This document shows, one piece after another, positions 24,041 through 54,572 of a stretch of DNA of 64,000 nt. Below the pieces are notes generated by a model. That model saw only the letters and a list, made by a program, of their open reading frames with translations. It was not told the DNA's origin and did not search any database. This DNA is from an uncultured Alphaproteobacteria bacterium (GTDB lineage Bacteria > Pseudomonadota > Alphaproteobacteria > HIMB59 > GCA-002718135). Position 1 is the stretch's first letter, and the number at the start of each line of letters is the position of its first letter. The translations under genes were made by a program, and so were the position numbers. Where the stretch lies: contig CACNHX010000002.1 in the NCBI GenBank assembly GCA_902620425.1, positions 75,127 through 139,126 on the forward strand, in the 5' to 3' direction.

Positions 24041-26200
24041 ATGGCTAAAAAGAAGAAAAAAATTATTAAAAAGAAAACAATAGTACCCAAAAAGAAAACT
24101 ACTGTTAAAAAAAAATTAACTAAGAAAAAATCAGTTTCTAAATCTTCCAAAGTTTCTAAATTAAAAACTATAAAAAAAACAAAAAAAACTATATCAAAAA
24201 AAGTACCCAAGAAGACATCTATTAAACCTTCTACAAAGGATAAACCAAAAAAAATTCCCAAAGTTATTTCAGGCTTCGAAGAAAAAATTAAAGAAATTTT
24301 TTCAAAGTTAATTAATAAGCATAAAATTGATGGAATATATACCAACAAGATAATTGAAAAAGCAATTCCAAAAAAATTTAGGATTGATGAAAATATAAAA
24401 AAATTTCAGGATCTTATTACTTCTAACAACATTAAAATATACTCAGAAGAAGAAGCAAAAGAATTATTATCTATAGCTAAAGAACAGAGTGAAAAATCTG
24501 AGGATGGTACTGATGAGCAAGAAAAAAAACAAACTGGAAAAACTGATGATCCTGTAAGATTATATTTAAGAGATATGGGTGCTGTTGAATTACTTAGTAG
24601 AGAGGGTGAAATAGCAATTGCTAAAAGAATTGAGGCAGGAAGAGAAAAAATGATTGGAGCTATTTGTGAGAGTCCAATGACAATTAGGTCAATAATTAAT
24701 TGGAAAGATGCAATTAAAGACGGAACTATGCTTTTAAGAGATATTGTAGATCTAGAAGCTACCTATGATATGTCAGATATATCAGATTCAAAACTTGAGG
24801 ATACACTTAAATTAATTGAAAGTGGCGGTGATAACAAAGAAGATGAAAATAAAAAGAAAGAAGATGCAAATAATTCTGAAGATAACAATGGAGAAGAGCA
24901 GACGCAAGAAGATGACGAGGATGATAGTTTAAACGTATCTCTTGCAGCAATGGAGGAAAAACTTAAACCAAAAGTATTAAATGATTTTAATGATATAACA
25001 AAACTATTCAAAAAACTCCAAAAACATAGTCAAGAACTAATAAATACAGATAAAAAAAATGAAAAAAATTATATCTCCTTAGAAAAAAAATATTTAAAAA
25101 TTCAAAAGGAAATGGTTGCGGCCATGAAGGCAGTTCATTTTAACTCCACTACTATTGAAGCATTAATGGAAGCATTATACGAATTAAATAAAAAACTTCT
25201 ATTTCGAGAGGGTAAAATGTTGCGTATGGCAACTAGTGCAGGTGTAAAAAGAGAAGATTTTGTAAATCAATATTTAAGTTTTAATTTTGAAAAAAATTGG
25301 ATCCAAACTTTATTAGCAACAAAAGACAAAAATTGGGAAAAGTTTATTAATAGAAATCATATTGAAATAAATAAAAATATTGAAGAAATTAAGGAAATTC
25401 AAACTGCATCAGAATTACCTTTAACTGAATTTAGAAGAATAGTGGGAACTGTGCAACAAGGTGAAAGGTCAGCTAATAGAGCTAAAAAAGAAATGATCGA
25501 ATCAAATCTTAGATTGGTAATTTCTATTGCAAAAAAATATACCAACAGAGGTCTTCAATTTTTAGATCTTATTCAAGAGGGTAATATTGGCTTAATGAAA
25601 GCTGTAGATAAATTTGAATATCGTAGAGGATATAAATTCTCTACTTATGCAACTTGGTGGATAAGACAAGCTATAACCAGATCTATTGCTGATCAAGCAA
25701 GAACAATAAGAATCCCTGTTCATATGATAGAAACAATTAATAAAATAGTTCGAACAACTAGACAGATTATGTCTGAGATTGGGAGGGAGCCTACTCCAAA
25801 CGAACTAGCTGATAGATTACATATGCCATTAGACAAAGTTAAGAAAGTTCTTAAAATAGCTAAAGAACCTATTAGTTTAGAAACGCCAGTAGGAGATGAA
25901 GAAGATAGCTCTCTTGGAGATTTTATCGAAGATAAAAATGCTCTTATACCTATAGATGCTGCGGTAAAAAGTTCTTTACGAGATACTACAACTAGAATAC
26001 TTTCTTCTTTAACACCTAGAGAAGAAAGAGTATTGAGAATGCGATTTGGTATTGGAATGAATAGTGATCATACCCTAGAAGAAGTTGGTCAACAATTTAG
26101 TGTTACAAGAGAGAGAATTAGGCAAATTGAAGCTAAGGCCCTAAGAAAATTAAAACATCCTACCAGAGCAAGAAAGTTAAAAACATTTCTTGACGAATAA
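24041..26200 (+). CDS. rpoD: RNA polymerase primary sigma factor with Lys-rich N-terminal extension
   Basis: [45 protein letters not shown]. Confidence 0.98.
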
Positions 26201-27027
26201 TGAAGCTAACGCTTCTTGGGACAGGATGTCCATCTATTGATCACAAAAGATGCGGTTCATCTAATCTTGTATCCTCAAAAAAAACCAAAATATTGGTAGA
26301 TTGTGGCTCAGGCGTAACACAAAGATTACACCAAAGTGGAAATTCTTCTGCTGAGATTGATGCGTTGTTACTTACACATCTTCATACAGATCATGTTATA
26401 GATTTATATCAACTAATTATTTCCTCTTGGCATTCAGATAGAGATTCAATTTGGAATATATATGGACCAAAAGGTACAAAAAAATTTATAGATAAAATTT
26501 TTTTAGCTTGGAGAGAAGAGCGTGAACTAAGAATTAATTATGAAAAGAGAAAATCTATAAAAGGTCTCAAATATAAAGTTTATGAGTTCAATAATGAAGG
26601 TAATATAAAAATTAATGATATAAAAATTAAATATTTTGAAGTAGATCATAAACCCGTTCCTTTTGCCTATGGCTTTTCTTTTTTTAATAATAAAAAAAAA
26701 TTAACAATTAGTGGTGACACAAAACCATGTGAGAGCTTAATGGTTAATGCTCAAAATGCAGATGTTCTTTTGCATGAAGTTTTTATTGAATATGAAATGA
26801 ATAAGACTTCAAAACTTAGAACTAAAAAAACTTTACATAATGTTAAGGAATATCATACTCCAAGTAATTTAGTTGGTAAGGTTGCAAAATTATCTAATTG
26901 TAAAAAACTTGTGTTAACGCATTTTGTTCCAACAAGATTCAATATTTCAAAACTTAAAAAAATAGTTAAAAAAGATTTTGGAAAGGATCCAATAATTGGA
27001 GAAGATTTATTAACTATTAAAATTTAA
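26200..27027 (+). CDS. MBL-fold metallo-hydrolase (RNase Z/AtsA-like)
   Basis: LLGTG.P, VDCG.G, THLHTDH (HxHxDH), SGDT, YHT, LTHF. Confidence 0.82.
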   Translation: MKLTLLGTGCPSIDHKRCGSSNLVSSKKTKILVDCGSGVTQRLHQSGNSSAEIDALLLTHLHTDHVIDLYQLIISSWHSDRDSIWNIYGPKGTKKFIDKIFLAWREERELRINYEKRKSIKGLKYKVYEFNNEGNIKINDIKIKYFEVDHKPVPFAYGFSFFNNKKKLTISGDTKPCESLMVNAQNADVLLHEVFIEYEMNKTSKLRTKKTLHNVKEYHTPSNLVGKVAKLSNCKKLVLTHFVPTRFNISKLKKIVKKDFGKDPIIGEDLLTIKI

Positions 27028-27851
27028 TTGATTTTATTCAATAATTTTTCAAATTCATCATCTTTAATTTCAACAATATTTGAGGATGTTGGAAATTTTT
27101 TAGTTTTAACGTCATCTATAAAGTTTTTCAAACCTTCTACAGTGTCATCTATAAGTTTTTCATAAGACTTATTCGTATCCTTAAATACTTTTGCATGTCG
27201 TGGTACTCGACCAGTATTAGTTCCAATTACATCTTGTATAAATAAAAACTCAACATCACAATTTGGACCACTTCCCATTGATAAAGTTAAAAGATTTACT
27301 TTTTTTGTAATTAATTCTGCTACCCGATCAGGAACACATTCTACCTCAAGACCAATAGCTCCCGCATTGTCATATGCAATAGCATCTTGATAAACTCTAA
27401 ATGCTGAGTCAGCATCTTTTCCTACGGCTTTAAAACCTCCGGTCCAAGTACTCTTATAGGGAATTAAACCAATATGACTTACAGATGGTAAACCTTCTTT
27501 ACGAAGAGCTTCAATATATTTTGGACTATTTCCACAATAAACTGCATCTGCTCCATTGTCTCTTGCAATTAATGCAGCATCAATTGCCTTATCAATAGAT
27601 GAAAGTTGACCAAGGCCAAATATCATAAAAGTATTAGGAGCAGCTTCTCTAATATCTTTTATATGAGCATCTCTGAACCATTTATTTGTTGGTACACCGG
27701 TTCTTAATGTTTCTTTTTTAAAAGATACAATTTGGATATCTATGCCAGCTTTTTCTGCAGCATAAGCTTCTAAAGAATTCGTTACATATAGCTCAGTTAA
27801 TTTTACTTTTCCTTTTTTCTCAAATAAATCTTTAACAGTTAATTTAGTCAT
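27024..27851 (-). CDS. Divergent ketopantoate hydroxymethyltransferase (PanB)-like protein
   Basis: HIGL.P, GGFKAVGK, EVECVP, GSG..D..F.F..DV.G resemble PanB, but the GDS, DLPF and KIEG motifs are absent. Confidence 0.7.
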   Translation of the reverse strand: MTKLTVKDLFEKKGKVKLTELYVTNSLEAYAAEKAGIDIQIVSFKKETLRTGVPTNKWFRDAHIKDIREAAPNTFMIFGLGQLSSIDKAIDAALIARDNGADAVYCGNSPKYIEALRKEGLPSVSHIGLIPYKSTWTGGFKAVGKDADSAFRVYQDAIAYDNAGAIGLEVECVPDRVAELITKKVNLLTLSMGSGPNCDVEFLFIQDVIGTNTGRVPRHAKVFKDTNKSYEKLIDDTVEGLKNFIDDVKTKKFPTSSNIVEIKDDEFEKLLNKIN

Positions 27852-29215
27852 TAATTATATTGAGGTAAATAATCACCATGTGCTTCAATCATTTTATCGG
27901 TCATGTTATAAATTTCATCAATTGTCAGATTAGCTCCTGTTAAAGGATCTAGCATTGCAGCATGGTATATATGCTCTCTTTTTTTTGTTAGAGCAGCTTC
28001 TGCAGTTAGTATTTGCACATTAATATTAGTGCGCATTAAAGCAGCTAATTGCTCTGGTAATTTACCAAATTTTTGAGGTTTATAACCTTTTGAATTAATT
28101 ATTACAGGAACCTCTACACAGCAATTTTCTGGTAAATTATCAATTAAATTGTCATTCATAACATTAGCATTGATAGTAACTTCTTTATTATTTGCAATTC
28201 CATCCATTATAAATGATGCATACTCATTACTTCTTTTAAGAGGCATATCATAAATTGGAGTCATATCTTTTTCCAAATCTTTCCAAAGTTTAATGTTGCT
28301 TTTGCATCTATCGATATACTCTTCTATTGGTATCTTGTATTTTTTTATGACGTCATCTCTATTTTGTTTTATGAACCATGGAACATATTCAGCAAAATGC
28401 TCACTAGATTCTGTTACAAAATAACCAAATCTTCTAAGAATTTCATATCGTACTTTTTCATGAAGTACTTTATTAGATTCGTGATCAGTTTTTTTACTTC
28501 TTGAGGATATTTCTTCATCATTTACAATTTTATCAGCTAGTTTTTTTAATCTTGGATATAAATCTTCGTTTTCATTTTCATTAATTTTCTTTTCAAATTT
28601 TTTATAGAAGGCCATATGGTTTATACCGCCACAAAGATAATCAATATTATTAATATCTTCATCTAAATCTTTTGCCAACATTTCTGCGGTTCCTTGAACG
28701 GAGTGACATAGACCCATAGCTTTTATTTCTGGGAAAGCAGTATTTATTGCAATCATGTTTGAACACATTGGATTTACGTATTGCAACCAAGTAGCATTAG
28801 AACAAATATCCATAATATCTTTTGCGATATCTAGTAAAACAGGAATAGTTCGTAGACCTCTCATTATTCCACCTATGCCGAGAGTATCTGCTATAGTTTG
28901 TCTTAACCCAAACTCATTTGGAATTTTAAAATCAATAACTGTGGATGGCTCATATCCCCCTACTTGAATTGTTGTTTGAACAAAGTCTGCACCAACTAAA
29001 GATTCTCGTCTGTCAGTATGGGAAGTAACTTTAGGTGAAACATTTAATTTTTTTGAAATTACATCTATTAAATCATGTGATGCTTTTAATCTTACAGGAT
29101 CAATATCTTGTAATGCAATCTCCATATTTTTAAATTGCTGAATAGCTAAAAGATCGGTTACTATTCTTCTTGTAAAAACAGCACTACCTGCGCCAATTAT
29201 AGTGAGTTTAATCAT
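27851..29215 (-). CDS. melA: GH4 NAD+-dependent alpha-galactosidase (MelA-like)
   Basis: IGAGS, QTIADTLGIGG, YVNPM, GLCHSV, GINHM, FGYFVTESSEHFAEYVPWF. Confidence 0.88.
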   Translation of the reverse strand: MIKLTIIGAGSAVFTRRIVTDLLAIQQFKNMEIALQDIDPVRLKASHDLIDVISKKLNVSPKVTSHTDRRESLVGADFVQTTIQVGGYEPSTVIDFKIPNEFGLRQTIADTLGIGGIMRGLRTIPVLLDIAKDIMDICSNATWLQYVNPMCSNMIAINTAFPEIKAMGLCHSVQGTAEMLAKDLDEDINNIDYLCGGINHMAFYKKFEKKINENENEDLYPRLKKLADKIVNDEEISSRSKKTDHESNKVLHEKVRYEILRRFGYFVTESSEHFAEYVPWFIKQNRDDVIKKYKIPIEEYIDRCKSNIKLWKDLEKDMTPIYDMPLKRSNEYASFIMDGIANNKEVTINANVMNDNLIDNLPENCCVEVPVIINSKGYKPQKFGKLPEQLAALMRTNINVQILTAEAALTKKREHIYHAAMLDPLTGANLTIDEIYNMTDKMIEAHGDYLPQYN

Positions 29216-29948
29216 TTTGATACTCCATGATTGAATTATGAGGTGCCACTTTTAAAGGAGTATACCTTGCGTGTCCAATTTCTTTATATGGATTATTTGT
29301 TTTAGTATTAAAGCATACTATTAAAGTTCTTCTTGAGTAGTTTGAATTATTTGCCTCTGATGAATGTAAAAGATTTGCATGAAAAAAAAGAGCATCTCCT
29401 GGATCGGCTTCAACATAAATACATTCATGTCTTTTTTCTAATTCACGTATTCTATCTAAATCTGCAGTTTGTTCAGGAGTATCAGATACACCATGACCTA
29501 TTCTTCCAACTTTTTGAGATCCTTTTAAAACTTTAAGACAGCCATTTTCTTTTGTAGCCTTATCTAACATTATAAAACAAGATCCCATATCTGGATATAG
29601 ACATGCATTATGATACCAATAACCATAATCCTGATGCCAATCAAAACCACCATCACCTGGCTTCTTCCAAATTACTTTTGAATGATAGTGGTAAACTTCA
29701 TCTTCCAGGAATTCTTCCATTGGTTTTACAATTCTTTCGTTAGTAGAAAATTTCCCAAATAAATCATTTGAGGGTTCATTCCATAATGTAATATTTAATT
29801 TACCCGTAGAACTAAACGTTTCTCTAGCTTGATTTTCTTTCTCAGAATTTCTTTCAATAAATTCAATTAATTTAAATATCTCATCTTCTGAAAAGAGTTT
29901 TCTTTTAAGAATGTATCCATTATTTCTGAAATCTGTGTAATCTGACAT
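29208..29948 (-). CDS. PhyH-family Fe(II)/2OG dioxygenase (L-proline 4-hydroxylase-like)
   Basis: WHQDYGYWY (H105, D107), ENGCL, LLHSS (H195), RR; overlaps melA start. Confidence 0.8.
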   Translation of the reverse strand: MSDYTDFRNNGYILKRKLFSEDEIFKLIEFIERNSEKENQARETFSSTGKLNITLWNEPSNDLFGKFSTNERIVKPMEEFLEDEVYHYHSKVIWKKPGDGGFDWHQDYGYWYHNACLYPDMGSCFIMLDKATKENGCLKVLKGSQKVGRIGHGVSDTPEQTADLDRIRELEKRHECIYVEADPGDALFFHANLLHSSEANNSNYSRRTLIVCFNTKTNNPYKEIGHARYTPLKVAPHNSIMEYQND

Positions 29949-30014
29949 ATTAATTTCATGTTAAAAATAAATAATAATATTGTCAAATAATTTAAGGTGT
30001 TTAAGAATAATCTT

Positions 30015-31478
30015 ATGAAAGTATCATTTCTTGGTGCAGGTAGTGTTGGCTTCACCCAAACCCTTGTTAGAGATATATTAAAAGTTAAAAAACTTCAAAA
30101 TATAGAAATTTCTTTACACGATATATCTAGAAATAATTTGTTAATGGTAGCAGAGTTAATTCAAAAAGATATTAAAGCTAATAATCTTCCAACAAAACTT
30201 AGTATTGATCCAATTAGAAAAGAATCAATAAGAAATGCAAAATATATCATTAGTTGTGTTAGAGTTGGAGGTTTAGAAGCATTTGAAACTGATATATCTA
30301 TTCCTTTAAAATATGGGATCGATCAATGTGTTGGAGATACAATTTGTGCTGGTGGCATAATGTATGGACAACGAAACATTCCAGTTATTTTAGATTTTTG
30401 TAAAGATATAAAAAAATATGCAAAAAAAAATGCTCTTTTCTTAAATTATGCAAATCCTATGGCTATGAATACCTGGGCGGCAAATGAAATTGGTAAAGTT
30501 AATACAATTGGTTTGTGTCACGGTGTTCAAGGTGGAGCAAAATTAATTGAAGATTCATTAAACATTCCATTTGGAAAAATGAAATATTCTTGCAGCGGTA
30601 TAAATCACATGACTTGGTATTTGGATTTAAATTATAAGGGTAAAAAAATTACAAAAGACCAGCTTTCTAAATCGTTAAAGAAACATAAAAAATTTTCAAG
30701 AGATGAAAAAGTTAGAATAGATGTTTTAGATAAATTTGGATATTTTTCTACAGAAAGTAACGGTCATTTAAGTGAATATTTACCATGGTATAGACGTACA
30801 CAAAAAGATGTGAAGAAATGGAGTAGTCTTTCAAACTGGATACATGGCGAAACAGGTGGTTACTTAAGAGTATGTAATGAAAAAAGAAATTGGTTTGTTG
30901 AGGATTATCCAAAATATTTAAAAAATTCTGGAATTAAGCTTAAAGATTACAAAAGATCAACTGAACACGGAAGTTATATAATTGAAGCAATTGAAACTGG
31001 AAAAAAATATAGAGGGCATTTTAATGTTATTAATAAAAAAACAATTTTTAATTTAGATGATGATTGCGTAATTGAGAGTACAGGATACGTAGATTCAAAA
31101 GGTATAAAAATGATTGATGGAATAACCTTACCGCTGCAATGTGCTTCTCTGTGCAGTACCTCAATAGATGTCCAAAGAATGGCTGTAAAGGCAGCAATAA
31201 AAGGAGATATTGAATTATTAAAACTTGCTGTACTGCAAGATCCACTAGTAAGCTCAGTATGTTCATCTGAGGAAGTTTGGCAAATGGTAGATGAAATGCT
31301 TGTTGCACAAGCACAATGGCTGCCACAATATCAATCAAAAATTAATAGTATTAAAAAGAATCTAAAAAAAATAAAAAATTATAAATATAATAAATCAATT
31401 AAAGGGCTGACCAAAAAAACAAAGCGTAATCAACAAAAAAGGTCAATTTTAGTTGAAAAGGAAGCATTTAATTTATAA
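30015..31478 (+). CDS. Second GH4 alpha-glucosidase/alpha-galactosidase
   Basis: Start at MKVSFLGAGS; DQCVGDT, NYANPM, GLCHGV, GINHMTW, STESNGHLSEYLPWY. Confidence 0.87.
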   Translation: MKVSFLGAGSVGFTQTLVRDILKVKKLQNIEISLHDISRNNLLMVAELIQKDIKANNLPTKLSIDPIRKESIRNAKYIISCVRVGGLEAFETDISIPLKYGIDQCVGDTICAGGIMYGQRNIPVILDFCKDIKKYAKKNALFLNYANPMAMNTWAANEIGKVNTIGLCHGVQGGAKLIEDSLNIPFGKMKYSCSGINHMTWYLDLNYKGKKITKDQLSKSLKKHKKFSRDEKVRIDVLDKFGYFSTESNGHLSEYLPWYRRTQKDVKKWSSLSNWIHGETGGYLRVCNEKRNWFVEDYPKYLKNSGIKLKDYKRSTEHGSYIIEAIETGKKYRGHFNVINKKTIFNLDDDCVIESTGYVDSKGIKMIDGITLPLQCASLCSTSIDVQRMAVKAAIKGDIELLKLAVLQDPLVSSVCSSEEVWQMVDEMLVAQAQWLPQYQSKINSIKKNLKKIKNYKYNKSIKGLTKKTKRNQQKRSILVEKEAFNL

Positions 31479-31559: not shown

Positions 31560-33611
31560 ATGAAAAAAAATAAATTTAGATCCACATTACTTGCTAGCGT
31601 AGCATCAGCTACTTTTGCATTAACCAGTACAAATGCGTCTGCTAGACCGGAAGGTGCAATAGCACTTCCATCAGCACCTGCAATTGAAAATATGCAAGAA
31701 GTTCAGTTCATTGGAAGAGATGAATTGATGAGCTATCAAGATATTGGAGACTTTGAATTTCTTTATGAACCAGAATACATTAGTGCTCTAGTTCAAGAAG
31801 GTAAACTACCACCGATTTGGGAACGATTACCAAAAAGACCTTTAGTTTTTAATGGAGATGCAATGCCTGATGGTATTGGTCGTTATGGAGGAACTTTTAG
31901 ACATACAATTGGTGGAAGACCTGAAGGATGGAACTGGACTGCTTCACAACATCAAGGATGGGGTGGAATTAATTACACAGTTCAAGAATGCCTAACAAGA
32001 AACGGTCCAATGGTAAGATTAAAAGCTGAAGACTCTTATCCTTTACCAAACTTAGCTACTGATTGGGAATGGGATGGAAATAAACTTACTATGAATCTTA
32101 TTGAAGGAGCAAAGTGGTCAGATGGAGATCCATTTGATGCAGAAGATGTTCGTTTTTGGTGGGAAGATAACGTTTTAGATGAGAACGTTCCAACAAGAAT
32201 GAATGCAACCACAATGGGAGAAGGGACTTCTTTGGAAGTACTTAGTCCAACCCAGATTAGATGGACATTCCCACAAGAAGAACCTAAATTAGTTCTTCAC
32301 TCCATGGCATATATAAATGGATGCCCTGGACCATCACATTTACTTAAAGAACATCACCCTAAATATGGTGGTACGTCTTATGATGATTATGTTCAAGCAT
32401 TTCCTGCTGGACGTTTACCATGGGTTAGCATGGGTGCATGGACTGCTGTTGAATATAAACAAGACGAGGTAGTAATACTTCGCAGAAATCCATACTATTG
32501 GAAAGTTGATAGTAAAGGACAACAACTTCCGTATATGAACGAGATGGTGTTCCAGTTAAAAACTTGGGGCCAAAGAACAGTTGATACCTTAGCTGGTAAC
32601 GCTGACTTCTCGAATATGGAGAACGTACCTTTATACTTAGAAGCTGTTAAAGAGTCTAAGAGTGATGATGCACAAGCTCAACTATCTTTTAGTGGAAGAA
32701 CCATGGGATATCAACTCGCCATGAACCAAGCAATTGGGTTAGGTGTATTGGATGATCAAATGGCAGCTATTCGAGATCTAAATAGAAATTTAGAATTCAG
32801 AAAAGCTGTTAAGCATGCAATTGATGGTAAAGCATTTGCAAAAGCAATGTCCAAAGGACCATTTGTGACAGTTTATGCAGGCGGTCTTGCTAGAGATAGT
32901 GCTTTCTTTGATGCAGATGCTACTTCATTTTTCCCTTATAATCCAGCAGGTGCAAATTCTATACTTGATGGATTAGGTCTTATAGATACTGATGGTAACG
33001 GAATTCGAAACCTTCCAAATGGAGGTGGAGATCTAGTTATTAATTTAGTTCAAAATAAAGGCAGTGATAATGAAATGTTGATTGGCGATGGAATGGCAAC
33101 TATGATGGCTGAAGTTGGTATTAAAATTAATATTAAACCAATGGAAGATACTGAGCCAACAAGACAAGCAGGTGAATGGGATTGGTTACTTGTAAGATCT
33201 CAACAAGAAATGGCCTTCCCTAATTCGGGTTATTGGTCAGATATGGGTCCTGTAACTACGTCTTCATTTGATCCTCACTTAGGAACTGATGAACACCCTC
33301 AACAACTTCAACCATTTGAGAAAGAAATCGTAAGTATTCTTGAAGAGTGGAGAGATGGTGTTGAAGGTGCAGAGGCTCAAGCATTAATGTCTCGCTATCA
33401 GAAACTATTTACAGAAAATGTTTATATGCCTGGTATAGTTCAATATCCAACAGCACTTTTGATAAACAAAAGAATTCAAAACTTAGCTGATGGAATGCCT
33501 GTTTTGGCTTATCAATGGGCTGAAGATACAGTTATCCGTGAACAATTCTGGGTTTATCAATATGATCAATTAGATGAACTTTTCCCTGGAAGAGTTCCTG
33601 GTATTGATTAA
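31560..33611 (+). CDS. Family 5 ABC substrate-binding protein, AgpA-like (probable alpha-galactoside binding)
   Basis: Signal peptide; GKLPP..ERLP, YGGT, WSDG.PF.A.DV, RNPYYWKVD.KG.QLPY; GGAGG SD; adjacent to GH4 genes. Confidence 0.8.
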   Translation: MKKNKFRSTLLASVASATFALTSTNASARPEGAIALPSAPAIENMQEVQFIGRDELMSYQDIGDFEFLYEPEYISALVQEGKLPPIWERLPKRPLVFNGDAMPDGIGRYGGTFRHTIGGRPEGWNWTASQHQGWGGINYTVQECLTRNGPMVRLKAEDSYPLPNLATDWEWDGNKLTMNLIEGAKWSDGDPFDAEDVRFWWEDNVLDENVPTRMNATTMGEGTSLEVLSPTQIRWTFPQEEPKLVLHSMAYINGCPGPSHLLKEHHPKYGGTSYDDYVQAFPAGRLPWVSMGAWTAVEYKQDEVVILRRNPYYWKVDSKGQQLPYMNEMVFQLKTWGQRTVDTLAGNADFSNMENVPLYLEAVKESKSDDAQAQLSFSGRTMGYQLAMNQAIGLGVLDDQMAAIRDLNRNLEFRKAVKHAIDGKAFAKAMSKGPFVTVYAGGLARDSAFFDADATSFFPYNPAGANSILDGLGLIDTDGNGIRNLPNGGGDLVINLVQNKGSDNEMLIGDGMATMMAEVGIKINIKPMEDTEPTRQAGEWDWLLVRSQQEMAFPNSGYWSDMGPVTTSSFDPHLGTDEHPQQLQPFEKEIVSILEEWRDGVEGAEAQALMSRYQKLFTENVYMPGIVQYPTALLINKRIQNLADGMPVLAYQWAEDTVIREQFWVYQYDQLDELFPGRVPGID

Positions 33612-34664: not shown

Positions 34665-35768
34665 ATGGAAACAACTTCAAACTTACAAAATTCATATTTT
34701 TCACTAGTAAGAAAAAGATTTTTGAAAAACAGAGTTGGAATATTAGGCTTAATTTTTGTAGGCTTTCTAATTTTCTCTGCTGTTTTTGCAGATTTTTTAT
34801 CTCCATATGATCCAGCAGCAAGAGATAGTGATAGAGTTTTTTATCCTCCTCAGGGAATACATTTCTTTGATGAGGATAATAATTTTTCGTTAAGACCTTT
34901 TGCTTATGGTTTTACTGAAGGATTTGATCCTGACACATATCTTCCAATAATGGAGATTGATTATACTCAAAAAAACTATCTTTATTTTTTTACTAGAGGA
35001 TGGGAATATAAGTTTCTAGGCTTAAATTTGGACTTACATTTATTTACTACTAAAGACGGGTCTAAAGTATTTTTTATTGGATCAGACGCCTATGGAAGGG
35101 ATATGTTATCAAGAATTTTTAAGGGAAGTAGGGTAACGCTATTATTCGCTCTGATAGTTGTAAGTATAACAACTTTCATTGGTATTTTAGTTGGAATTAG
35201 CTCAGGTTATTTTTCAGGAAAATTTGATATAGCTTCACAAAGAGTTACGGAACTTGCTTTAGCTTTTCCAGATCTACCTTTGTATTTATCCTTGGTAGCA
35301 ATTCTGCCAAGGCAAATGGATCCATTTCTGATTTTTATCTTTATGGCATTTATTTTATCCTCTTTACGGTGGGCTCAACTATCAAGAGAGGTTCGGGGAA
35401 AAACCCTTTCTTTAAGAAGATTAGACTATATTAAAGCAGCTGAAGCTTTAGGCTCCAATGATCTAAGAATTATATATAGACATCTACTTCCCAATGTAAC
35501 AAGTCACGTTATAGTAAGTGTTTCTTTATTGATACCTTCTGTAATTTTGACAGAAAGTTTTTTTAGCTTTTTAGGTTTAGGCATTCAATCTCCATTTGTT
35601 AGTTGGGGTCTTCAATTAAATTCTGCTCAAGATATGCGAACAATTGGAAGTTATCCATGGGTTTTAAGTCCTGTTTTTGCAATCTTAATTTCAGTTTTAG
35701 GATTTAATGCTCTTGGTGATGCTTTACGCGATGCAATTGATCCATATGCAACAACAACAAAAAAATAA
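34665..35768 (+). CDS. ABC permease (OppC/DppC type)
   Basis: GSDAYGRD.LSR, YIKAAEALG, SFLGLG, LGDALRDA.DP. Confidence 0.9.
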   Translation: METTSNLQNSYFSLVRKRFLKNRVGILGLIFVGFLIFSAVFADFLSPYDPAARDSDRVFYPPQGIHFFDEDNNFSLRPFAYGFTEGFDPDTYLPIMEIDYTQKNYLYFFTRGWEYKFLGLNLDLHLFTTKDGSKVFFIGSDAYGRDMLSRIFKGSRVTLLFALIVVSITTFIGILVGISSGYFSGKFDIASQRVTELALAFPDLPLYLSLVAILPRQMDPFLIFIFMAFILSSLRWAQLSREVRGKTLSLRRLDYIKAAEALGSNDLRIIYRHLLPNVTSHVIVSVSLLIPSVILTESFFSFLGLGIQSPFVSWGLQLNSAQDMRTIGSYPWVLSPVFAILISVLGFNALGDALRDAIDPYATTTKK

Positions 35769-38965: not shown

Positions 38966-39042
38966 GGGCTCTTAGCTCAGTTGGTTAGAGCGCCCCGCTC
39001 ATAACGGGGTGGTCCGGGGTTCAAGTCCCTGAGGGCCCACCA
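38966..39042 (+). tRNA. tRNA with CAT anticodon, probably tRNA-Ile2 (lysidine)
   Basis: GGGCTCT/AGGGCCC acceptor, anticodon arm with CTCATAA loop, GGTTCAAGTCC T arm, CCA. Resembles E. coli ileX more than metT and lacks initiator features; Ile2 versus Met not certain. Confidence 0.88.
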
Positions 39043-41311: not shown

Positions 41312-42139
41312 ATGAAAAAAGTTTCACAGCTTGATGAATACTTATTTGATTTAAATGGATATTTAATAATTGAAAATGCTTTAAGTAGAAAAGAATTAAA
41401 AGATCTTAATAATATTCTAGATAAATTAAAAAGTTTAAAACATAAAGAATGGGCAGGCTATGTTCATGGACACAATTATGGTGGCAAGGAAGGTTTAAAT
41501 CTTCAACAAATTTATGAAGCTGGAAAACCCTTTGAAAAATTAATTGATCATCCTTCATGGATAAATCATATGCTTCATTTTGTTGGAGGAAAAGATACAT
41601 TTGATCAACATCATGGACCATTATTTATCGATGAAAATTTTGCGAATATTAGAGGGCAGGGAGAAGCTATTGGAATTCATTCTGGTGCTCACGAAGGAAC
41701 TCAAAGAGGTCATTATAGATTTGAAAATGGAAAATTTCACTGCGGACAAATTAATATTTTGCTAGCTCTAAATGATATAGGCCCAGGTGATGGTGGTACA
41801 GTCATTATTCCTTCATCACATAAATCAAATTTACGTCATCCAGAGTTTGATAAACATGTTATGAAAAAGGGCAAAGTTACATCAGCTGATAATATGACAG
41901 CTTCAAAAGAAATTTATTTAAAAGCTGGAGACGGACTATTATTTGTAGATTCACTTTGTCATGGTTCTGCAAAAAGAACAAATAAAGGAGAAAGAAGAAT
42001 TGTTGTTTACAGATATGGGCCTTCTTGGGGTTTTTTTAGACACCCTTATCGACCTTCAAAAAAACTACTTTCAAATCTCACTGAATTTCAAAAAAAAATA
42101 GTAATGCCTCACGAGCAAGTGCTTTCACCAAATAACTAA
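41312..42139 (+). CDS. PhyH-family Fe(II)/2OG enzyme with H-S-G in place of H-x-D
   Basis: FDLNGYL, GIHSG (H123-S-G125), DGGT..IP.SHKSN, AGD.LLF..SL.HG (H217), RR. Confidence 0.78.
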   Translation: MKKVSQLDEYLFDLNGYLIIENALSRKELKDLNNILDKLKSLKHKEWAGYVHGHNYGGKEGLNLQQIYEAGKPFEKLIDHPSWINHMLHFVGGKDTFDQHHGPLFIDENFANIRGQGEAIGIHSGAHEGTQRGHYRFENGKFHCGQINILLALNDIGPGDGGTVIIPSSHKSNLRHPEFDKHVMKKGKVTSADNMTASKEIYLKAGDGLLFVDSLCHGSAKRTNKGERRIVVYRYGPSWGFFRHPYRPSKKLLSNLTEFQKKIVMPHEQVLSPNN

Positions 42140-45375: not shown

Positions 45376-45376
45376 T

Positions 45377-46420: not shown

Positions 46421-47373
46421 AATATGATAGAATAGAAGGAATAGATAAAGACATATCCAAACTTGTCATGGGATGTGATAACCAAGATGATATAAACGAA
46501 GCTTCAAGGTTATGGGATCATTGGATTGAAGTCGGTGGTAATATGTTTGATACGGCATTCATTTATGGCGGGGGTAATCACGAAAAAGTTTTAGGACAAT
46601 GGTTAAAAAACAACAATAATAGAAAAGATGTTTTAATACTTGGCAAAGGTGCTCACACGCCTGATTGCAATCCTGAAGCTATTTCAAAACAATTAACAAT
46701 TTCTCTTGAAAGAATGAATACTGATTATGTTGACATCTATATTATGCACCGAGATAATACCGATTATTCTGTTGAAGAATTTATGGATGTTTTAAATGAA
46801 GAGAAAGAAAAAGGTAGAATAAAAATATTTGGAGGCTCAAACTGGACCATTGAAAGATTTAAAGAAGGAAATGAATGGGCACAAAAAAATAATAAACAAG
46901 AAATGTCTATACTTAATAATAATTTAGCTCTTGCTAAAATGATTAAACCTTTATGGAATGGTTGCTTATCTTCTAACACTAATGATACATTAGAATATTT
47001 AAATTCATCTCAGAAATCCCATATGTCATGGTCTAGTCAAGCAAGAGGATATTTTTTACCAGATGATATTACAAAAGAAATTGAAGACAAAATTACAAAA
47101 GCGGAAACATACAGAGCGCCTGGTGAAAATTCTAGTGGCCCTATCAGCTGCTATGATAGTGAAGATAATAGAGAAAGAAAAAAAAGAGCAATAGAATTAG
47201 CAGAAAAAAAAGGATGTTCTGCTCATAATATTGCAGCTAGCTGGACTATCAATCAATCTTTTCCTTCATTTGCATTAATTGGACCAAGAACTATTAATGA
47301 GCTTGATACAACATTACCTTGTTTAGATATAGAGTTAACAAAAGAGGAAATTAATTGGTTAAACTTATCTTAG
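46417..47373 (+). CDS. Aldo/keto reductase
   Basis: FDTAFIY (D/Y), GK, SLERM.TDYVD...MHRD, FGGSNW. Confidence 0.88.
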   Translation: MKYDRIEGIDKDISKLVMGCDNQDDINEASRLWDHWIEVGGNMFDTAFIYGGGNHEKVLGQWLKNNNNRKDVLILGKGAHTPDCNPEAISKQLTISLERMNTDYVDIYIMHRDNTDYSVEEFMDVLNEEKEKGRIKIFGGSNWTIERFKEGNEWAQKNNKQEMSILNNNLALAKMIKPLWNGCLSSNTNDTLEYLNSSQKSHMSWSSQARGYFLPDDITKEIEDKITKAETYRAPGENSSGPISCYDSEDNRERKKRAIELAEKKGCSAHNIAASWTINQSFPSFALIGPRTINELDTTLPCLDIELTKEEINWLNLS

Positions 47374-48402
47374 TTTAGACTTTTTGATTCTATCACTCGT
47401 TCCTTCATTTAATATTGGCTCAATCAAAGTTGATACTTTACGAATTGGTATGTCTTGATCTAAATCCTGTAACATTTTTACAGAACGTTTTCCCATTTCC
47501 ATTAGCGGGTGAGAAATATATGTAAGATTTTGCGAGCTTAAATAACTATCTTGATCGTTAAATCCTACTACTGAAATATCTTGACCAATATTCAGTTTTA
47601 AATCCTGACACTTCAACAAACACCCTGTAAAAAAACGAAGATGTGAACAAATTATAGCTGTAGGAGGTTTTTTTAAACCTAATAAATAACTTGTTAAAGC
47701 TGATCCTGATTCAACTGTTTCAATTAAACTATCTTGATAATATTCTTTAGAAAATTGAAGTTGTAAATTCCTTACTGAATTTTCATAAGCAACTTTTCTT
47801 TGAGCTCCATAATTAAAACTTCGATGGACATTAATAAACGCAATTCTTTTATGACCATTATTTGATAGTTTATTCATCAGAAGTTCTATGCTTTTGTTGT
47901 TATCCAAATCTATCCACGCATGGTCTTTCTGTTTATTTGTTCTGCCCCAAGTTACAAATTTAATATTTCTTTCATTCAAGAAAGTAACTCTTTCATCATT
48001 TTTTTTTATCTTATAAAAAATAAATTTATCTGCTTGTTCTGTAGAAATAAGTCTCTTGAAATAATTCATTTCTTCGTCTTCATTTAAGCAAAACTTTGTA
48101 ATTAATTCAGTATTAGTATTCTTTATTCCTAGAGTAATTCCTGCAAGAAACTGCAAAACAACATGATCAGGTGCGTCAGGATCAATAGATGATATAAAGG
48201 CAATTGTATCAGTTTTTTTTGATGCCAATCTTCTTGCATTCAAGTCAGGAAAGTATTTGTATTTTTTTGCAGTTTTAAAAACTTTATCCTTAGTTTGCTG
48301 TGATATATTGTCATATCCATTTAGTGCTCTAGAAACAGAACTTACAGATAAACCAAGTTTTTGGGCCAATCCTTTTATATTTATTTTTTTATTTTTTCTC
48401 AT
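47365..48402 (-). CDS. LacI-family transcriptional regulator
   Basis: IK.LA..LGLS.SSVSRALNG HTH, Y.P...ARRL, PTAI, SVVGF.D. Confidence 0.92.
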   Translation of the reverse strand: MRKNKKINIKGLAQKLGLSVSSVSRALNGYDNISQQTKDKVFKTAKKYKYFPDLNARRLASKKTDTIAFISSIDPDAPDHVVLQFLAGITLGIKNTNTELITKFCLNEDEEMNYFKRLISTEQADKFIFYKIKKNDERVTFLNERNIKFVTWGRTNKQKDHAWIDLDNNKSIELLMNKLSNNGHKRIAFINVHRSFNYGAQRKVAYENSVRNLQLQFSKEYYQDSLIETVESGSALTSYLLGLKKPPTAIICSHLRFFTGCLLKCQDLKLNIGQDISVVGFNDQDSYLSSQNLTYISHPLMEMGKRSVKMLQDLDQDIPIRKVSTLIEPILNEGTSDRIKKSKLR

Positions 48403-48490: not shown

Positions 48491-48516
48491 TATCAAACTA
48501 TTAAGGGAGGAAAATA

Positions 48517-49761: not shown

Positions 49762-49773
49762 TATAACTTTTAT

Positions 49774-49797
49774 TAAGGCAGGATTTATCCTGCCTTA
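49774..49797 (+). terminator. Hairpin after SBP gene (no clear T-tract; possibly mRNA-stabilising)
   Basis: TAAGGCAGGA-TTTA-TCCTGCCTTA. Confidence 0.65.
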
Positions 49798-49821
49798 GTT
49801 AACTTGCTTTTTAAATTTCCA

Positions 49822-51599: not shown

Positions 51600-51601
51600 T
51601 T

Positions 51602-52675
51602 ATGAAAAATAGTGTTGAGGTAAAAAATATATCCTTCAGTTATGGAAAAACTGAAATATTAAATGATTTAAGTCTTGATATTAAAGAAGGTGAATTTATG
51701 GTTTTGCTAGGGCCATCAGGTTGCGGAAAAACTACTTTGTTAAACTGTATAGCTGGTCTTTTGGATTTAACGGATGGACAGATTTGGATTGAAGATGATA
51801 ACGTAACATGGAAAGAGCCAAAAGATAGGCACATAGGAATGGTGTTTCAGTCCTACGCCTTATATCCAAGTATGACTGTTGAGAAGAATTTGTCATTTGG
51901 TTTAAGGATGATGGGAACTGCTAAAAAAATTATAGATGAAAAAATAGAAAAAGCAGCAAATCTTTTACAAATAAATGAATTACTTAAAAGAAAACCATCT
52001 CAACTATCAGGAGGTCAAAGACAACGTGTTGCAATAGGAAGAGCTTTAGTAAGAGATGCAAAAGTTTTTTTATTTGATGAACCATTGAGTAATCTAGATG
52101 CAAAATTAAGAGCCGAATTACGTTATGAAATTAAAAAACTTCATAGAGATTTATCCAATACCATGATTTATGTAACCCATGATCAAATTGAAGCAATGAC
52201 ACTTGCTGATCGTATATCTGTTATGAAAGATGGTTTAATACAACAATTAGATACGCCTAAACAAATTTACAATAAACCAGCTAATTTGTTTGTAGCTGGA
52301 TTTATTGGATCTCCGAGCATGAATTTTTTAAATGCTAAATTTGATAAATCAAATCAAAATTTAATTATTGGAAAACGACATATTAATATTTCTAAATATG
52401 AAAATACTAATGATTTGATTGATGATCAACAAGTAGTATTTGGTATAAGGCCTGAAAATATAATTATAGATAAAAACGAAAATTCTATTTTATGTAAAGT
52501 TGAATTAGTAGAGCCCATGGGTGCTGATACTTTAGTTTGGACTAGTATTGAGGGTACACCGATATCAATTAGATTAGAAGGCAGTTCAAATTACAATTTA
52601 AATGATGAAATAAATATCTCTTTTGATATAAATAAATCTTCAATATTTGATAGTAAATCTGAGGAGAGAATCTAA
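51602..52675 (+). CDS. MalK/MsmK-type sugar ABC ATPase
   Basis: Start moved to MKNSVEV; GPSGCGKT, VFQSYALYP, LSGGQRQR, FDEPLSNLDA, YVTHDQ. Confidence 0.95.
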   Translation: MKNSVEVKNISFSYGKTEILNDLSLDIKEGEFMVLLGPSGCGKTTLLNCIAGLLDLTDGQIWIEDDNVTWKEPKDRHIGMVFQSYALYPSMTVEKNLSFGLRMMGTAKKIIDEKIEKAANLLQINELLKRKPSQLSGGQRQRVAIGRALVRDAKVFLFDEPLSNLDAKLRAELRYEIKKLHRDLSNTMIYVTHDQIEAMTLADRISVMKDGLIQQLDTPKQIYNKPANLFVAGFIGSPSMNFLNAKFDKSNQNLIIGKRHINISKYENTNDLIDDQQVVFGIRPENIIIDKNENSILCKVELVEPMGADTLVWTSIEGTPISIRLEGSSNYNLNDEINISFDINKSSIFDSKSEERI

Positions 52676-53448
52676 TGAACAGAAATGATGTATCTATGCA
52701 ATTATATACTACAAGAAAATTTCAACCTTATGAGCCAATTTTTAAATTCTTATCTGAGTCTGGAATTAAAAATATTGAATTATTTGATTTAGATAAAATT
52801 AATTTAGATAATTTTAAATCCATGATGGATGATAACGATATTTCTATAAAATCATCACACATAAGCTTTCAAGCTATAACAGATACTGATGAAACAATCA
52901 GAAGGATGAAATATCTTAATATAAAACATGCAATAGTCCCATCTGTACCAGAAAAATTCAATAAAGATTTTGCTTCAAATTTTGATCTTGATGAAGATAC
53001 TTGGAATAGTTTTGGGAAAGATTTATCTTCATATGTTCAAATTTATGAAGATAATGGATTAACACTTGGATATCATAATCACTCTTTTGAATTTAGACCT
53101 CTACCTAGTGGAAAACTTCCAATTGAGTGTATGATGGATCATAATGAAAATCTTAAAATGGAATTAGATCTTGGTTGGGCAGTTGCTGGAAAGGCTAATC
53201 CACTTGATTGGATAGAAAAATATAAAAATAAAATTGTTGGCTGTCATTTGAAAGATTTTTATGATCAAACTAAAAATTTATTAGAACATGATCAGCAATC
53301 TGCAGTAGGAGAGGGTTTCATTGATTGGCCAAAACTAATTTCAGAAGTTAAAAAAACACCATGTGAGGTATTTGTTTTAGAGCACGATGATCCAAAGGAT
53401 TATAAAGAATACACGACCAAGTCTTTAGAATATTTAGAAACAATTTAA
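52675..53448 (+). CDS. Sugar phosphate isomerase/epimerase (xylose-isomerase-like TIM barrel)
   Basis: QLYT.R, YHNH.FEF, ELD.GW, HLKD, G.G.IDW, LEHD metal ligands. Confidence 0.85.
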   Translation: MNRNDVSMQLYTTRKFQPYEPIFKFLSESGIKNIELFDLDKINLDNFKSMMDDNDISIKSSHISFQAITDTDETIRRMKYLNIKHAIVPSVPEKFNKDFASNFDLDEDTWNSFGKDLSSYVQIYEDNGLTLGYHNHSFEFRPLPSGKLPIECMMDHNENLKMELDLGWAVAGKANPLDWIEKYKNKIVGCHLKDFYDQTKNLLEHDQQSAVGEGFIDWPKLISEVKKTPCEVFVLEHDDPKDYKEYTTKSLEYLETI

Positions 53449-54572
53449 TGAATATTGGAATTGTTGGTTGTGGGAATATTTCTGAGACTTATTTTGAATG
53501 TCAAAAAATATTCAATAATTTCAAAATAGTTGCTTGCGCTGATATTAATAAAGAAGCTGCATCTAATGCTGCATCTAAATATAATGTTAACGCGTTATCA
53601 GTTGATGAAATATTAGAAAACAATGAAATTGATTTAATTATTAACTTAACAATTCCTGCAGCTCATAAAGAAATTATTACAAAATCACTTTATAATGGAA
53701 AACATTGTTTTAGTGAAAAGCCCTTAGCAATGAATTTTGAAGAGGGTTTAGAAATACAAAAATTAGCAGATGAAAAAGGCTTATATGTAGGATGTGCTCC
53801 TGATACATTTCTTGGAGCAGCAGGGCAAAGGGCTAGAAAATTAATTGAAGACAACAAGATTGGAAAAATTGTTCTAGGTACATTTAATTTGATGTCTCAC
53901 GGGATGGAGCATTGGCATCCCAATCCAGATTTTTTCTTTAAACCTGGTGCTGGACCAGTTTTTGATGTTGGTGTTTATTATATTACGCAATTAGTAAACC
54001 TAATTGGACCAGTTAAAAAAATAAATGCAATTAGTGGAACTGCTACAAATGAGAGAACAATAACTAGTCAACCAAGATACGGAGATAAAATTAAAGTTGA
54101 AACTCCAACAACTCTGATGGGTTCTTTAGAGTTTCAAAATAATGCAAAAGTTCAGTTTTTTTGTACTTGGGATGTTTGGAAAAATAATCATTCAACAATT
54201 GAACTTTATGGACTTGATGGTTCAATGATTGTCCCTGATCCAAATTTTTTTAGTGGTGATTTATTAATGTCCAAAAAAGATAGTGAATGGGAAACTATCA
54301 ATAACGATAACATGTTGTTAGGTATTCCGAATAAAAGTGACGGAGAAGGTAATAAAAAAGCAAATTATAGAGGAATAGGTCTCTCAGAAATGATTGATTC
54401 TATATCTAATAATCGAAAAGCAAGATGCTCTCTTGAGTTATCTCTTCATGTTCTTGAAATTATGGATGGAATTATAAAATCGGCTGAAGAAAACAAATCT
54501 TATCAACTATCAACCAACCCTAATCAACCTGCAATATTAACCGAAGAAGAAATAAAAAATTTAAAAATTTAA
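53448..54572 (+). CDS. Gfo/Idh/MocA oxidoreductase
   Basis: GIVGCGNIS, NLTIP.AH, SEKP, APDTFLG, WHPNP.FFF..GAGP.FD.G.YY. Confidence 0.9.
   Translation: MNIGIVGCGNISETYFECQKIFNNFKIVACADINKEAASNAASKYNVNALSVDEILENNEIDLIINLTIPAAHKEIITKSLYNGKHCFSEKPLAMNFEEGLEIQKLADEKGLYVGCAPDTFLGAAGQRARKLIEDNKIGKIVLGTFNLMSHGMEHWHPNPDFFFKPGAGPVFDVGVYYITQLVNLIGPVKKINAISGTATNERTITSQPRYGDKIKVETPTTLMGSLEFQNNAKVQFFCTWDVWKNNHSTIELYGLDGSMIVPDPNFFSGDLLMSKKDSEWETINNDNMLLGIPNKSDGEGNKKANYRGIGLSEMIDSISNNRKARCSLELSLHVLEIMDGIIKSAEENKSYQLSTNPNQPAILTEEEIKNLKI

Follow-up and report, generated by a model that had tools for sequence, protein, structure and literature searches.

An uncultured alphaproteobacterium of the SAR11 type carries, between rpoD and mlaC, an integrase-free flexible island, which is a mosaic of several units set between fixed anchors. 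The island lies in a stretch of 64,000 nucleotides (the window: contig CACNHX010000002.1 of assembly GCA_902620425.1, positions 75,127 to 139,126 of the forward strand), whose GC content is low (about 0.25-0.36) and whose proteins fall in clusters with source names from the Pelagibacteraceae, i.e. SAR11. We favor, with a probability of roughly 0.6, the reading that this is a carbohydrate-scavenging island in which a homolog of flavin-dependent halogenases (Hal) and two Fe(II)/2-oxoglutarate (Fe/2OG) oxygenases of the PhyH family (PhyH1 and PhyH2) act as tailoring or unmasking enzymes and not as passengers. The observation that carries this reading is the linkage of Hal with family-4 glycosidases (GH4) and a MelB-type ATP-binding cassette (ABC) importer, which is conserved across three alphaproteobacterial orders, the Hyphomicrobiales, the Rhodobacterales and SAR11.

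In the window these genes form two divergent operons, which together make up what we term cassette A (27,024-38,916). The plus-strand operon begins with GH4L (30015..31478), a predicted MelA-type GH4 enzyme of 487 aa, and continues with SBP_5 (31560..33611), a 683-aa substrate-binding protein (SBP) of the MelB/AgpA type, i.e. a candidate periplasmic alpha-galactoside-binding protein of the PDB 6EPY family. This is followed by two DppB/DppC-type permeases (33661-34659 and 34665-35768; Pfam BPD_transp_1, BPD_transp_1_N and OppC_N), a 540-aa fused double ABC ATPase (35768..37390; two Pfam ABC_tran domains) and finally Hal (37390..38916; Trp-halogenase family, Pfam PF04820, 334.8 bits), whose start codon overlaps the stop codon of the ATPase gene. 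The minus-strand operon comprises, again with overlapping stop and start codons, PhyH1, a further MelA-type GH4 of 454 aa (GH4s; 27851..29215) and a PanB-like protein. The two GH4 proteins are paralogs with 33% identity, which contain the Pfam GH4 domains (GH4 and GH4C in the case of GH4s), score above the cut-off of 486 bits of the NCBIfam "alpha-galactosidase" model PRK15076 (585 bits for GH4s and 540 bits for GH4L) and retain the NAD motif GAGS, the GINHM motif and the Cys-His metal site (GLCHSVQG / GLCHGVQG).

The SBP_5 protein aligns from residue 37 to 681 with positions 15-668 of the Agrobacterium fabrum MelB chain (6EPY; 601 bits, E 3.4e-179). Thus, cassette A displays the features expected of a MelB/AgpA-type importer, namely a full-length SBP homolog of ~680 aa with adjacent Dpp-type permease and ATPase genes and alpha-galactosidase genes. 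The A. fabrum MelB (6EPY-6EQ8) and Sinorhizobium meliloti AgpA-MelA systems likewise combine a ~680-aa cluster-C SBP with a translocator of Dpp-like permeases and ATPase, and have a MelA-type GH4 gene next to it. In the window and in a defined set of Alphaproteobacteria, unlike in these systems, the operon is extended by a flavin-dependent halogenase and a further GH4, in some cases also by a PhyH-type oxygenase; to our knowledge, the described Agrobacterium and Sinorhizobium loci are devoid of a halogenase. The hosts differ too, the present one being an open-ocean oligotroph, for which raffinose and galactinol are not obvious substrates.

We scanned an alignment of Hal against one genome per GTDB species and searched the 80 best loci with the window proteins using tblastn. 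Outside SAR11, a Hal 40-48% identical to that of the window occurs in 19 loci from Devosia, Kaistia, Bauldia, Aestuariivirga, Tabrizicola, Histidinibacterium, Marivivens, Rhodobacter, Cypionkella and Paracoccaceae metagenome-assembled genomes (MAGs). A GH4s ortholog is present in every one of them, a MelB-type SBP in 16 and GH4L in 14, the GH4 beside Hal in the latter being 54-60% identical to GH4L; the fused ATPase is 50-56% identical in the Hal-linked loci. In two Rhodobacterales loci (L020 and L026) the genes are arranged on a single strand in the order SBP-permease-permease-ATPase-GH4s-Hal-GH4L, with gaps of just 33-46 bp. In contrast, GH4s, GH4L and SBP_5 are found in none of the 54 loci with a Hal homolog of 37% identity or less (from Alteromonas, Cellvibrio, Caulobacter, sphingomonads and others), setting the Hal clade apart from these paralogs. 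The Hal relatives at 47-50% identity (Devosia, Bauldia and a metagenome contig) adjoin GH4 genes and an AraC regulator, and those of Devosia and the metagenome contig additionally adjoin a 697-aa SBP_5 importer component; AraC regulators accompany the non-SAR11 Hal-linked versions, whereas the SAR11 version is without one. Within SAR11, Hal is restricted to just three or four species representatives: that of L011 is of the window type, whereas L012 and L034 have, likewise at the rpoD-MBL junction, a version that is 66% identical and differs in its gene order.

The recurrence of this association bears on the alternative that the locus is concerned with ordinary sugar uptake and that Hal, PhyH1, PhyH2 and the PanB-like protein are unrelated genes which gathered in a hypervariable slot. 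Linkage of Hal to GH4 in 19/19 and to the MelB-type SBP in 16/19 non-SAR11 loci of the clade, spanning two further orders and often within an operon, is not what passengers would be expected to display. The same may be said of the start/stop overlaps between the ATPase and Hal, PhyH1 and GH4s, and GH4s and the PanB-like genes, and of a Rhodobacterales locus (L030) in which a PhyH2-type gene is placed between the ATPase and GH4s. An earlier note on this DNA, made from the letters alone, had proposed that the oxidative genes are tied to sugar loci, a proposal it would have given up had no conserved linkage existed in other genomes. For Hal the linkage exists, its clade being embedded in operons with GH4 and a MelB-type importer in three orders, and PhyH2-type genes are situated within or beside such an operon in two Rhodobacterales MAGs and in several SAR11 variants; linkage of PhyH1 and the PanB-like protein is seen in SAR11 only. 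The backbone systems are already known. Our literature searches, however, turned up no account of a halogenase clade associated with MelB/GH4 operons, nor of this SAR11 island; neither is mentioned in PMC12636525 or PMC12789548.

Hal looks like a working flavin-dependent halogenase, because its catalytic motifs are invariant and the full Trp-halogenase fold is predicted for it. In an alignment with 20 homologs, which are 46-86% identical to the window protein, the invariant positions include the GxGxxG motif (G11-G16), K80 (matching the catalytic lysine K79 of PrnA), W270xW272xI274-P275, and E340/E343 in FLEPLEAT (the glutamate motif of PrnA E346). The AlphaFold2 (AF2) model of Hal (pLDDT 89.5) shows the two-module fold, with template-modeling (TM) scores of 0.81-0.88 to Thal, BorH, PrnA, RebH and PyrH. 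Hal thus shares the fold, the FAD motif, the lysine, the WxWxIP motif and the glutamate with the Trp halogenases PrnA, RebH, Thal, SttH and BorH and with the orphan enzymes BrvH (6FRL) and Xcc4156 (6Y1W); no NCBIfam model exists for its clade. However, its identity to the flavin-dependent Trp halogenases is only 23-29% in structural alignments, and it occurs in a catabolic import operon, whereas theirs are biosynthetic clusters. Further, the segment HHFYHPF of SttH is aligned to HQYYGPIDD in Hal, and Trp is therefore doubtful as its substrate.

These features have to be set against the possibility that we are dealing with a plain raffinose, melibiose or galactinol locus, in which Hal has become a relic, inactive or moonlighting (for instance, as a regulatory or structural partner of AraC or GH4), and performs no halogenation. 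The MelB/AgpA-MelA backbone is indeed that of a described plant alpha-galactoside system, no flavin reductase is conserved nearby, and in Bauldia the AraC and Hal genes overlap, pointing to translational coupling. Yet invariance of GxGxxG, the catalytic lysine, WxWxIP and the glutamate motif over 20 sequences is unexpected for a relic, as is a full halogenase fold predicted with high confidence, and we consider this alternative decidedly improbable.

The second line of evidence concerns PhyH2 (41312..42139, plus strand; Pfam PhyH, 56.8 bits), which belongs to a different subfamily from PhyH1, with about 1200 representatives. Its best sequence match is HygX (PDB 4XC9/4XCB, E 1e-11), which is also the best fold match of its AF2 model (pLDDT 88.9; TM 0.65-0.75). 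HygX, an enzyme of hygromycin B/orthosomycin biosynthesis (4XC9/4XCA/4XCB), has as its target a C-H bond beside a sugar ring; PhyH2 differs from it in sharing just 19-20% identity and in its catabolic or import context, as opposed to one of antibiotic biosynthesis. Across 21 homologs of 26-58% identity, H123-x-G125, H170-K171, H217 and R228 of PhyH2 are invariant, such that HxG replaces the HxD/E of the usual HxD/E...H facial triad; this assignment comes from the conservation pattern in the 21 homologs, since an hhalign comparison of PhyH2 with PhyH1 gave an unreliable placement of HxD. HxG is the pattern of Fe/2OG halogenases, and the authors of the HygX study reportedly noted variation in metal coordination, which the invariant HxG of PhyH2 would fit. 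Hence, this motif may be a signature of an Fe/2OG halogenase or may reflect a HygX-like variant coordination. In L030 a PhyH2-type gene separates the ATPase gene from GH4s, and in L015 one is found at a distance of 2.5 kb from Hal (both loci are from Rhodobacterales MAGs), while in SAR11 variants PhyH2-type paralogs occur upstream of PhyH1 or after Hal. As an instance of the latter, the SAR11 single-cell genome AG-422-J16 codes for a paralog (L011:11536-12357, minus strand; 68% identical) directly after Hal, in addition to its copy after the fructose-bisphosphate aldolase gene.

PhyH1 (29208..29948, minus strand; Pfam PhyH, 113.6 bits), whose stop codon overlaps the start codon of GH4s, has a canonical HxD...H triad, with a WHQD motif and a distal histidine in HANLLHSS (H190/H195 invariant), and an invariant R206/R207 pair providing the 2OG-binding arginine. 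Its best PDB matches are 7DT0/7DZZ, GriE and EctD. Homologs number 5554 at E<=1e-10, the 120 listed being marine sequences of 77-97% identity, and in nearly all SAR11 variants that carry PhyH1 it precedes GH4s; outside SAR11 we found no linkage of PhyH1 to sugar loci. In some SAR11 variants the PhyH1-GH4s operon contains a third kind of oxygenase, a gene of ~330 aa of the fatty acid desaturase family (PF00487) placed between the two (L001:763-1758, L004:765-1757, L091:8742-9737 and L092:8742-9734).

The last gene of the PhyH1-GH4s operon (27024..27851, minus strand) encodes a TIM-barrel protein that is a degenerate homolog of the ketopantoate hydroxymethyltransferase PanB (PanBl; Pfam PF02548, 130.6 bits). 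It falls below both NCBIfam cut-offs (105.9 versus 207.55 bits for TIGR00222 and 113.6 versus 272 bits for NF001452). Relative to 1OY0 and 1O66, KLEGG is changed to YCGNS and the SDLP segment is deleted; thereby Lys112/Glu114 and the Asp84 segment are lost (Asp84, Lys112 and Glu114 being the Mg2+ ligands and lysine of the E. coli enzyme), while His136- and Glu181-like residues are kept. PanBl has more than 2600 homologs, the best 120 of which are all SAR11-type and 85-100% identical, and this points to a conserved yet diverged function.

The variable DNA extends from 27,024 to 54,572, with core genes on either side, as judged from the open reading frame (ORF) listing, Pfam matches and the SAR11 variants. 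The left flank is made up of the housekeeping genes carAB, greA, a thioredoxin-reductase-like gene, ggt, dnaG and rpoD, followed by a gene for a metallo-beta-lactamase (MBL)-fold hydrolase of the RNase Z-like type (26200..27027, plus strand; Pfam Lactamase_B_2). As the MBL gene comes after rpoD in all SAR11 variants seen, it is an anchor and no cargo, and the variable DNA starts at 27024. The right flank starts with mlaC (54595..55197, minus strand; Pfam), likewise an anchor and no cargo, and continues with mlaA, uvrD and ligA; in a near-identical genome, bamD/yfiO- and mraZ/mraW-type genes follow. The whole arrangement is common to six near-identical SAR11 contigs.

We then mapped the window proteins and tRNAs on 75 contigs from a metagenome scan anchored on the MBL gene. 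Four elements are constant in the variants, rpoD-MBL, a tRNA-Met, a fructose-bisphosphate aldolase (FBA) and mlaC, and the DNA between them varies, giving the order rpoD-MBL / slot 1 / tRNA-Met / slot 2 / FBA / slot 3 / mlaC; it follows that this is a mosaic island and not a single unit. The tRNA-Met (CAT anticodon; 38966..39042, plus strand; ARAGORN) is located between Hal and the next gene, and a scan of 18 related SAR11 loci recovered it in 14. The class II FBA (40202..41266, plus strand; TIGR01521, 590.9 bits, cut-off 496) is present in every variant whose sequence extends that far. Both are thus anchors of the locus and not cargo of the island. Slot 1, which holds cassette A in the window, could be assessed in 42 MBL-anchored contigs with enough downstream sequence, and is closed by the tRNA-Met in 30 of these. 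Its content in the 30 is GH4s alone (19), PhyH1 alone (3), PanBl with GH4s (1) or PanBl with PhyH1 (1), and it is empty (53-281 bp) in the remaining 6. The 12 contigs that end before the tRNA have GH4s (6), PanBl with GH4s (2), PanBl (1), a GH4L-Hal-importer-GH4s array (1, L149) or no match (2). In SAR11 metagenome contigs, slot 1 is thus most often occupied by GH4s; a cassette like that of the window was encountered only in L168, which is outside the 42 as its MBL match is a 45-residue fragment. Slot 2 contains a 377-aa major facilitator superfamily (MFS) transporter in the window (39021..40154, minus strand; Pfam MFS_1) and another CUT1 importer in L100. In the minimal variant L130 it contains (2367-7157) a 693-aa radical SAM protein, a DUF6580 protein, a cytidylyltransferase and a GH1 glycosidase. 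In L130 the FBA gene directly adjoins mlaC, and therefore 41,312-54,572 of the window is cargo of slot 3.

Pfam scans recovered no integrase or transposase in the window, and comparison of the flanks yielded only short repeats of low identity, none beyond chance. Hence, of the attributes of an integrase-mediated island, the tRNA is present while the integrase and the flanking direct repeats are not. This bears out the earlier note, which had reported neither integrase nor flanking repeat. ORF, Pfam and NCBIfam data likewise confirm its gene inventory of three ABC importers, two GH4s, four redox or isomerase genes, FBA, LacI, two PhyH proteins and a halogenase, and its recognition of a degenerate PanB holds, given the pass in Pfam, the failure at both NCBIfam cut-offs and the loss of the Asp84 segment and Lys112/Glu114. 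Its placement of the region between core blocks is correct, but its left edge of 26200 moves to 27024 with the conserved MBL gene; further, it had counted the FBA among the island genes, where it is a conserved anchor, and overlooked the tRNA-Met.

Slot 3 holds two further cassettes. Cassette B comprises PhyH2, a CUT1-type sugar importer made of an SBP (SBP1a; 42233-43486; Pfam SBP_bac_1/8) and a fused double permease (43549-45375; two Pfam BPD_transp_1 domains), a GFO/IDH/MocA oxidoreductase (45377-46420; Pfam) and an aldo-keto reductase (46417-47373; Pfam), all on the plus strand. The importer (42233-45375) has no ATPase of its own, SBP1a has only weak PDB matches, none informative on its ligand, and the two enzymes have weak NCBIfam matches to xylose, inositol and levoglucosan dehydrogenases. 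Cassette C is headed by a divergent LacI-family repressor gene (47365..48402, minus strand; Pfam LacI and Peripla_BP_3), followed on the plus strand by a predicted glucose-type CUT1 SBP (SBP1b; 48517-49761), two permeases of this CUT1 importer (49804-50703 and 50703-51599) and a MalK/UgpC-type ATPase (51557-52675; NF008653, 451 bits). SBP1b matches the glucose-binding proteins 5XPJ/5DVF/4R2B with E 1e-73 and SAR11_0769 (PDB 8HQQ) with E 6e-64. The nearest known counterparts in SAR11 are the variable "glycolysis operon", reportedly described by Schwalbach in 2010, and SAR11_0769 of "Ca. P. ubique" HTCC1062. The latter is a picomolar-affinity D-glucose-binding protein, and its system resembles the present one in its CUT1 glucose-family SBP, patchy distribution in SAR11 and high in situ SBP expression (PMC11485210). 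SBP1b nonetheless has greater similarity to the glucose-binding proteins of Pseudomonas (5XPJ, E 1e-73) than to SAR11_0769.

The remaining two plus-strand genes of cassette C are predicted to specify a deglycosylation pair. The first (52675..53448) encodes a xylose-isomerase-like TIM barrel, a candidate 3-keto-glycoside beta-eliminase/hydratase, which matches AtOGE (PDB 8BVK, E 3e-27), the 3-keto-O-glycoside beta-eliminase of A. tumefaciens (PMC10628242), with equivalents of its His134, Glu137, Asp163 and His189 conserved in the motifs HNH..E, ELD.W, H.KD and LEHD. The second (53448..54572) is a GFO/IDH/MocA protein (GFOb; PDB matches DgpA1/DgpA), a candidate glycoside 3-dehydrogenase or 3-keto-sugar reductase that is nearest to the C-glycoside 3-dehydrogenase DgpA (E 8e-16) and has weak NCBIfam matches to levoglucosan dehydrogenase and the disaccharide 3-dehydrogenase BT_2159. 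An AtOGE homolog next to a DgpA-nearest GFO parallels the GlycDH/Gfo + AtOGE + AtHYD system of A. tumefaciens, the DgpA-C system for C-glycosides and the LgdA/B pathway for levoglucosan; cassette C differs in having one TIM barrel and one GFO, without a separate hydratase or a GMC-type GlycDH, in the tie of the pair to a glucose-type CUT1 importer, and in missing all NCBIfam equivalog cut-offs. The four redox or isomerase genes of the island thus appear to fit a recently described route in which glycosides are cleaved by oxidation and elimination, a mechanism related to that of GH4, and therefore are not anomalous. Where the earlier note could match no described pathway, the backbone fits MelB/AgpA-MelA, a glucose importer of the GtsA/SAR11_0769 type, and a 3-dehydrogenase with a 3-keto-glycoside beta-eliminase.

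Taken together, a scheme may be proposed for the island. In cassette A, the high-affinity MelB/AgpA-type SBP and the Dpp-like ABC translocator would import alpha-galactoside-type glycosides, which GH4s and GH4L would cleave by NAD+/Mn2+-dependent oxidation-elimination, with Hal, PhyH1 and the PanB-derived TIM barrel as co-transcribed accessory enzymes. In slot 3, LacI would control the glucose-type CUT1 importer of cassette C, whose MalK probably also energizes the importer of cassette B, and the dehydrogenase and the AtOGE-like eliminase would cleave glycosides via a 3-keto intermediate. All cleavage steps of the island would then be redox-assisted and tolerant of unusual aglycones. Hal could halogenate an electron-rich aglycone or the glycoside itself, and PhyH1 and PhyH2 could hydroxylate C-H bonds flanking an O-substituent or the oxygen of the glycosidic bond, resulting in demethylation or oxidative cleavage. 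The glycosides themselves may conceivably be, as the earlier note suggested, algal solutes that are methylated, halogenated or linked to an aglycone. The best reading is that Hal and the HygX-like PhyH2 are genuine accessory parts of the alpha-galactoside module. A more specific proposition is that SAR11, Rhodobacterales and Hyphomicrobiales use halogenation as a functional step in the catabolism or processing of glycosides, with Hal halogenating the imported alpha-galactoside or its aglycone, transiently or permanently. This might activate the substrate for cleavage (a "cryptic halogenation" in catabolism) or make a bioactive halogenated product, with the HxG-type PhyH2 possibly a second, radical halogenase; we regard this proposition as distinctly doubtful.

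Seawater metatranscriptome contigs cover the whole island, with depth highest on the three SBP genes and FBA (SBP_5 having the deepest coverage within cassette A, and SBP1a also being high) and lower, though non-zero, on the Hal, PhyH and GH4 genes, which is consistent with expression of the island in situ.

Several points weigh against the accessory role for Hal and the PhyH proteins that we favor. The functions of the island proteins are predictions, and the alpha-galactoside ligand class of SBP_5 is suggested by overall similarity to MelB alone. Contig depth is a poor measure of expression, and the metatranscriptome evidence is weak because the contigs are strandless and may include DNA. 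Around Hal, neither a flavin reductase nor any further family recurs in 22 loci beyond GH4, the ABC parts and AraC (ORF clustering, which is noisy in high-GC loci owing to spurious antisense ORFs, was used only for the recurrence of such further families); a nearby reductase partner is frequent for flavin-dependent halogenases, though not obligatory. We know of no sugar pathway that uses a halogenase. The closest solved relatives of PhyH1 act on amino acids or ectoine and not on sugars, PhyH1 occupies slot 1 without GH4s in L109, L120 and L160, a 45%-identical relative of PhyH2 lies in an unrelated context, and the linkage of the PanB-like protein is confined to SAR11, where adjacency says little because the island is a recombination hot spot. 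Some of these points are shared by the passenger alternative introduced above. The locus being a mosaic hot spot with many alternative contents, osmolyte or amino acid hydroxylases (PhyH1 resembles GriE and EctD) and an orphan halogenase are conceivable as passengers, PhyH1 stands alone in slot 1 in three contigs, PhyH2 relatives at 45% identity have unrelated neighbors, and no sugar pathway known to us requires these enzymes. We therefore treat the passenger alternative as unlikely but to be taken seriously.

Two further alternatives concern the island as a whole. As halogenases and oxygenases of the HygX kind are characteristic of gene clusters for secondary metabolites, one may think of a biosynthetic cluster for a halogenated or oxidized glycoside natural product. 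This is very improbable, as the region has no glycosyltransferase, non-ribosomal peptide synthetase/polyketide synthase (NRPS/PKS) or sugar-nucleotide enzyme and a single MFS protein as its sole exporter candidate, while it is furnished with three SBP-dependent importers, with glycosidases that act by hydrolysis or elimination, and with a LacI repressor. The other alternative, an anti-phage defense or mobile-element cargo island, might be prompted by the adjoining tRNA, an integrase at the same junction in L123 and weak matches of the MBL protein to Apyc1, LmuA and Avs. However, PADLOC was negative for Hal, PhyH1, PhyH2, PanBl and MFS, the cargo is all metabolic, and the window lacks integrases, transposases and flanking repeats; we give this alternative next to no weight. 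All four alternatives are less consistent than the scavenging island with tailoring enzymes with the cross-order conservation of the operon, the invariant catalytic residues, the importer-hydrolase content and the negative PADLOC result.

Among the heterotrophs of the surface ocean SAR11 is the most abundant, and its capacity for using carbohydrates is considered poor. Three sugar importers, two GH4s and an eliminase pair would imply that some SAR11 lineages scavenge glycosides by cleavage that is redox-assisted throughout. Through the cross-order link between Hal and the alpha-galactoside operon, many "orphan" halogenases, a large class, acquire a physiological context that is open to experiment, and culturable relatives in Devosia and Rhodobacter have the same operon. 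If the link is functional, halogenation or Fe/2OG-dependent C-H oxidation would join the known enzyme steps of sugar catabolism, and it would point to a marine glycoside pool that is used by SAR11.

Some smaller observations may be added. A second version of cassette A, in the order GH4L-Hal-SBP5-DppBC-DppDF, is present in L012 and L034 (10001-17450) and in L149; its Hal is 61-66% and its SBP 42% identical to those of the window, and such a divergent version at the same junction suggests a separate acquisition or an old divergence. A contig 98-100% identical to the DppB/C/DF-Hal segment of the window (L046) is binned in an "uncultured Prochlorococcus" MAG, an assignment that is probably a binning error. 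In L123, a SAR11-like metagenome contig, a gene of the phage integrase family (969-1910) immediately follows MBL and precedes five ORFs without a Pfam match; it is the only mobility gene at the MBL junction in any variant, and the contig has no tRNA. Base 26200 is common to the rpoD stop and the MBL start, and the MBL protein has sub-threshold matches to models of RNase Z, the anti-Pycsar protein Apyc1 and cyclic-nucleotide phosphodiesterases. About 22 nt of the tRNA-Met gene also belong to the 3' end of the convergent MFS ORF, an overlap that recurs in L001; in L003 a shorter MFS gene (283 aa) was called. Matches to the LacI operator consensus (36, with 35.8 expected) are uninformative, and a promoter scan gave fewer sites than in shuffled sequences, AT-rich DNA being ill suited to it. 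The terminator scan, for which this DNA is likewise ill suited, returned only the hairpin after SBP1a. This terminator-like hairpin (43457-43475) is situated at the 3' end of SBP1a (stop at 43486), upstream of the permease gene, and fits the far higher metatranscriptome depth on this SBP than on the genes downstream of it.

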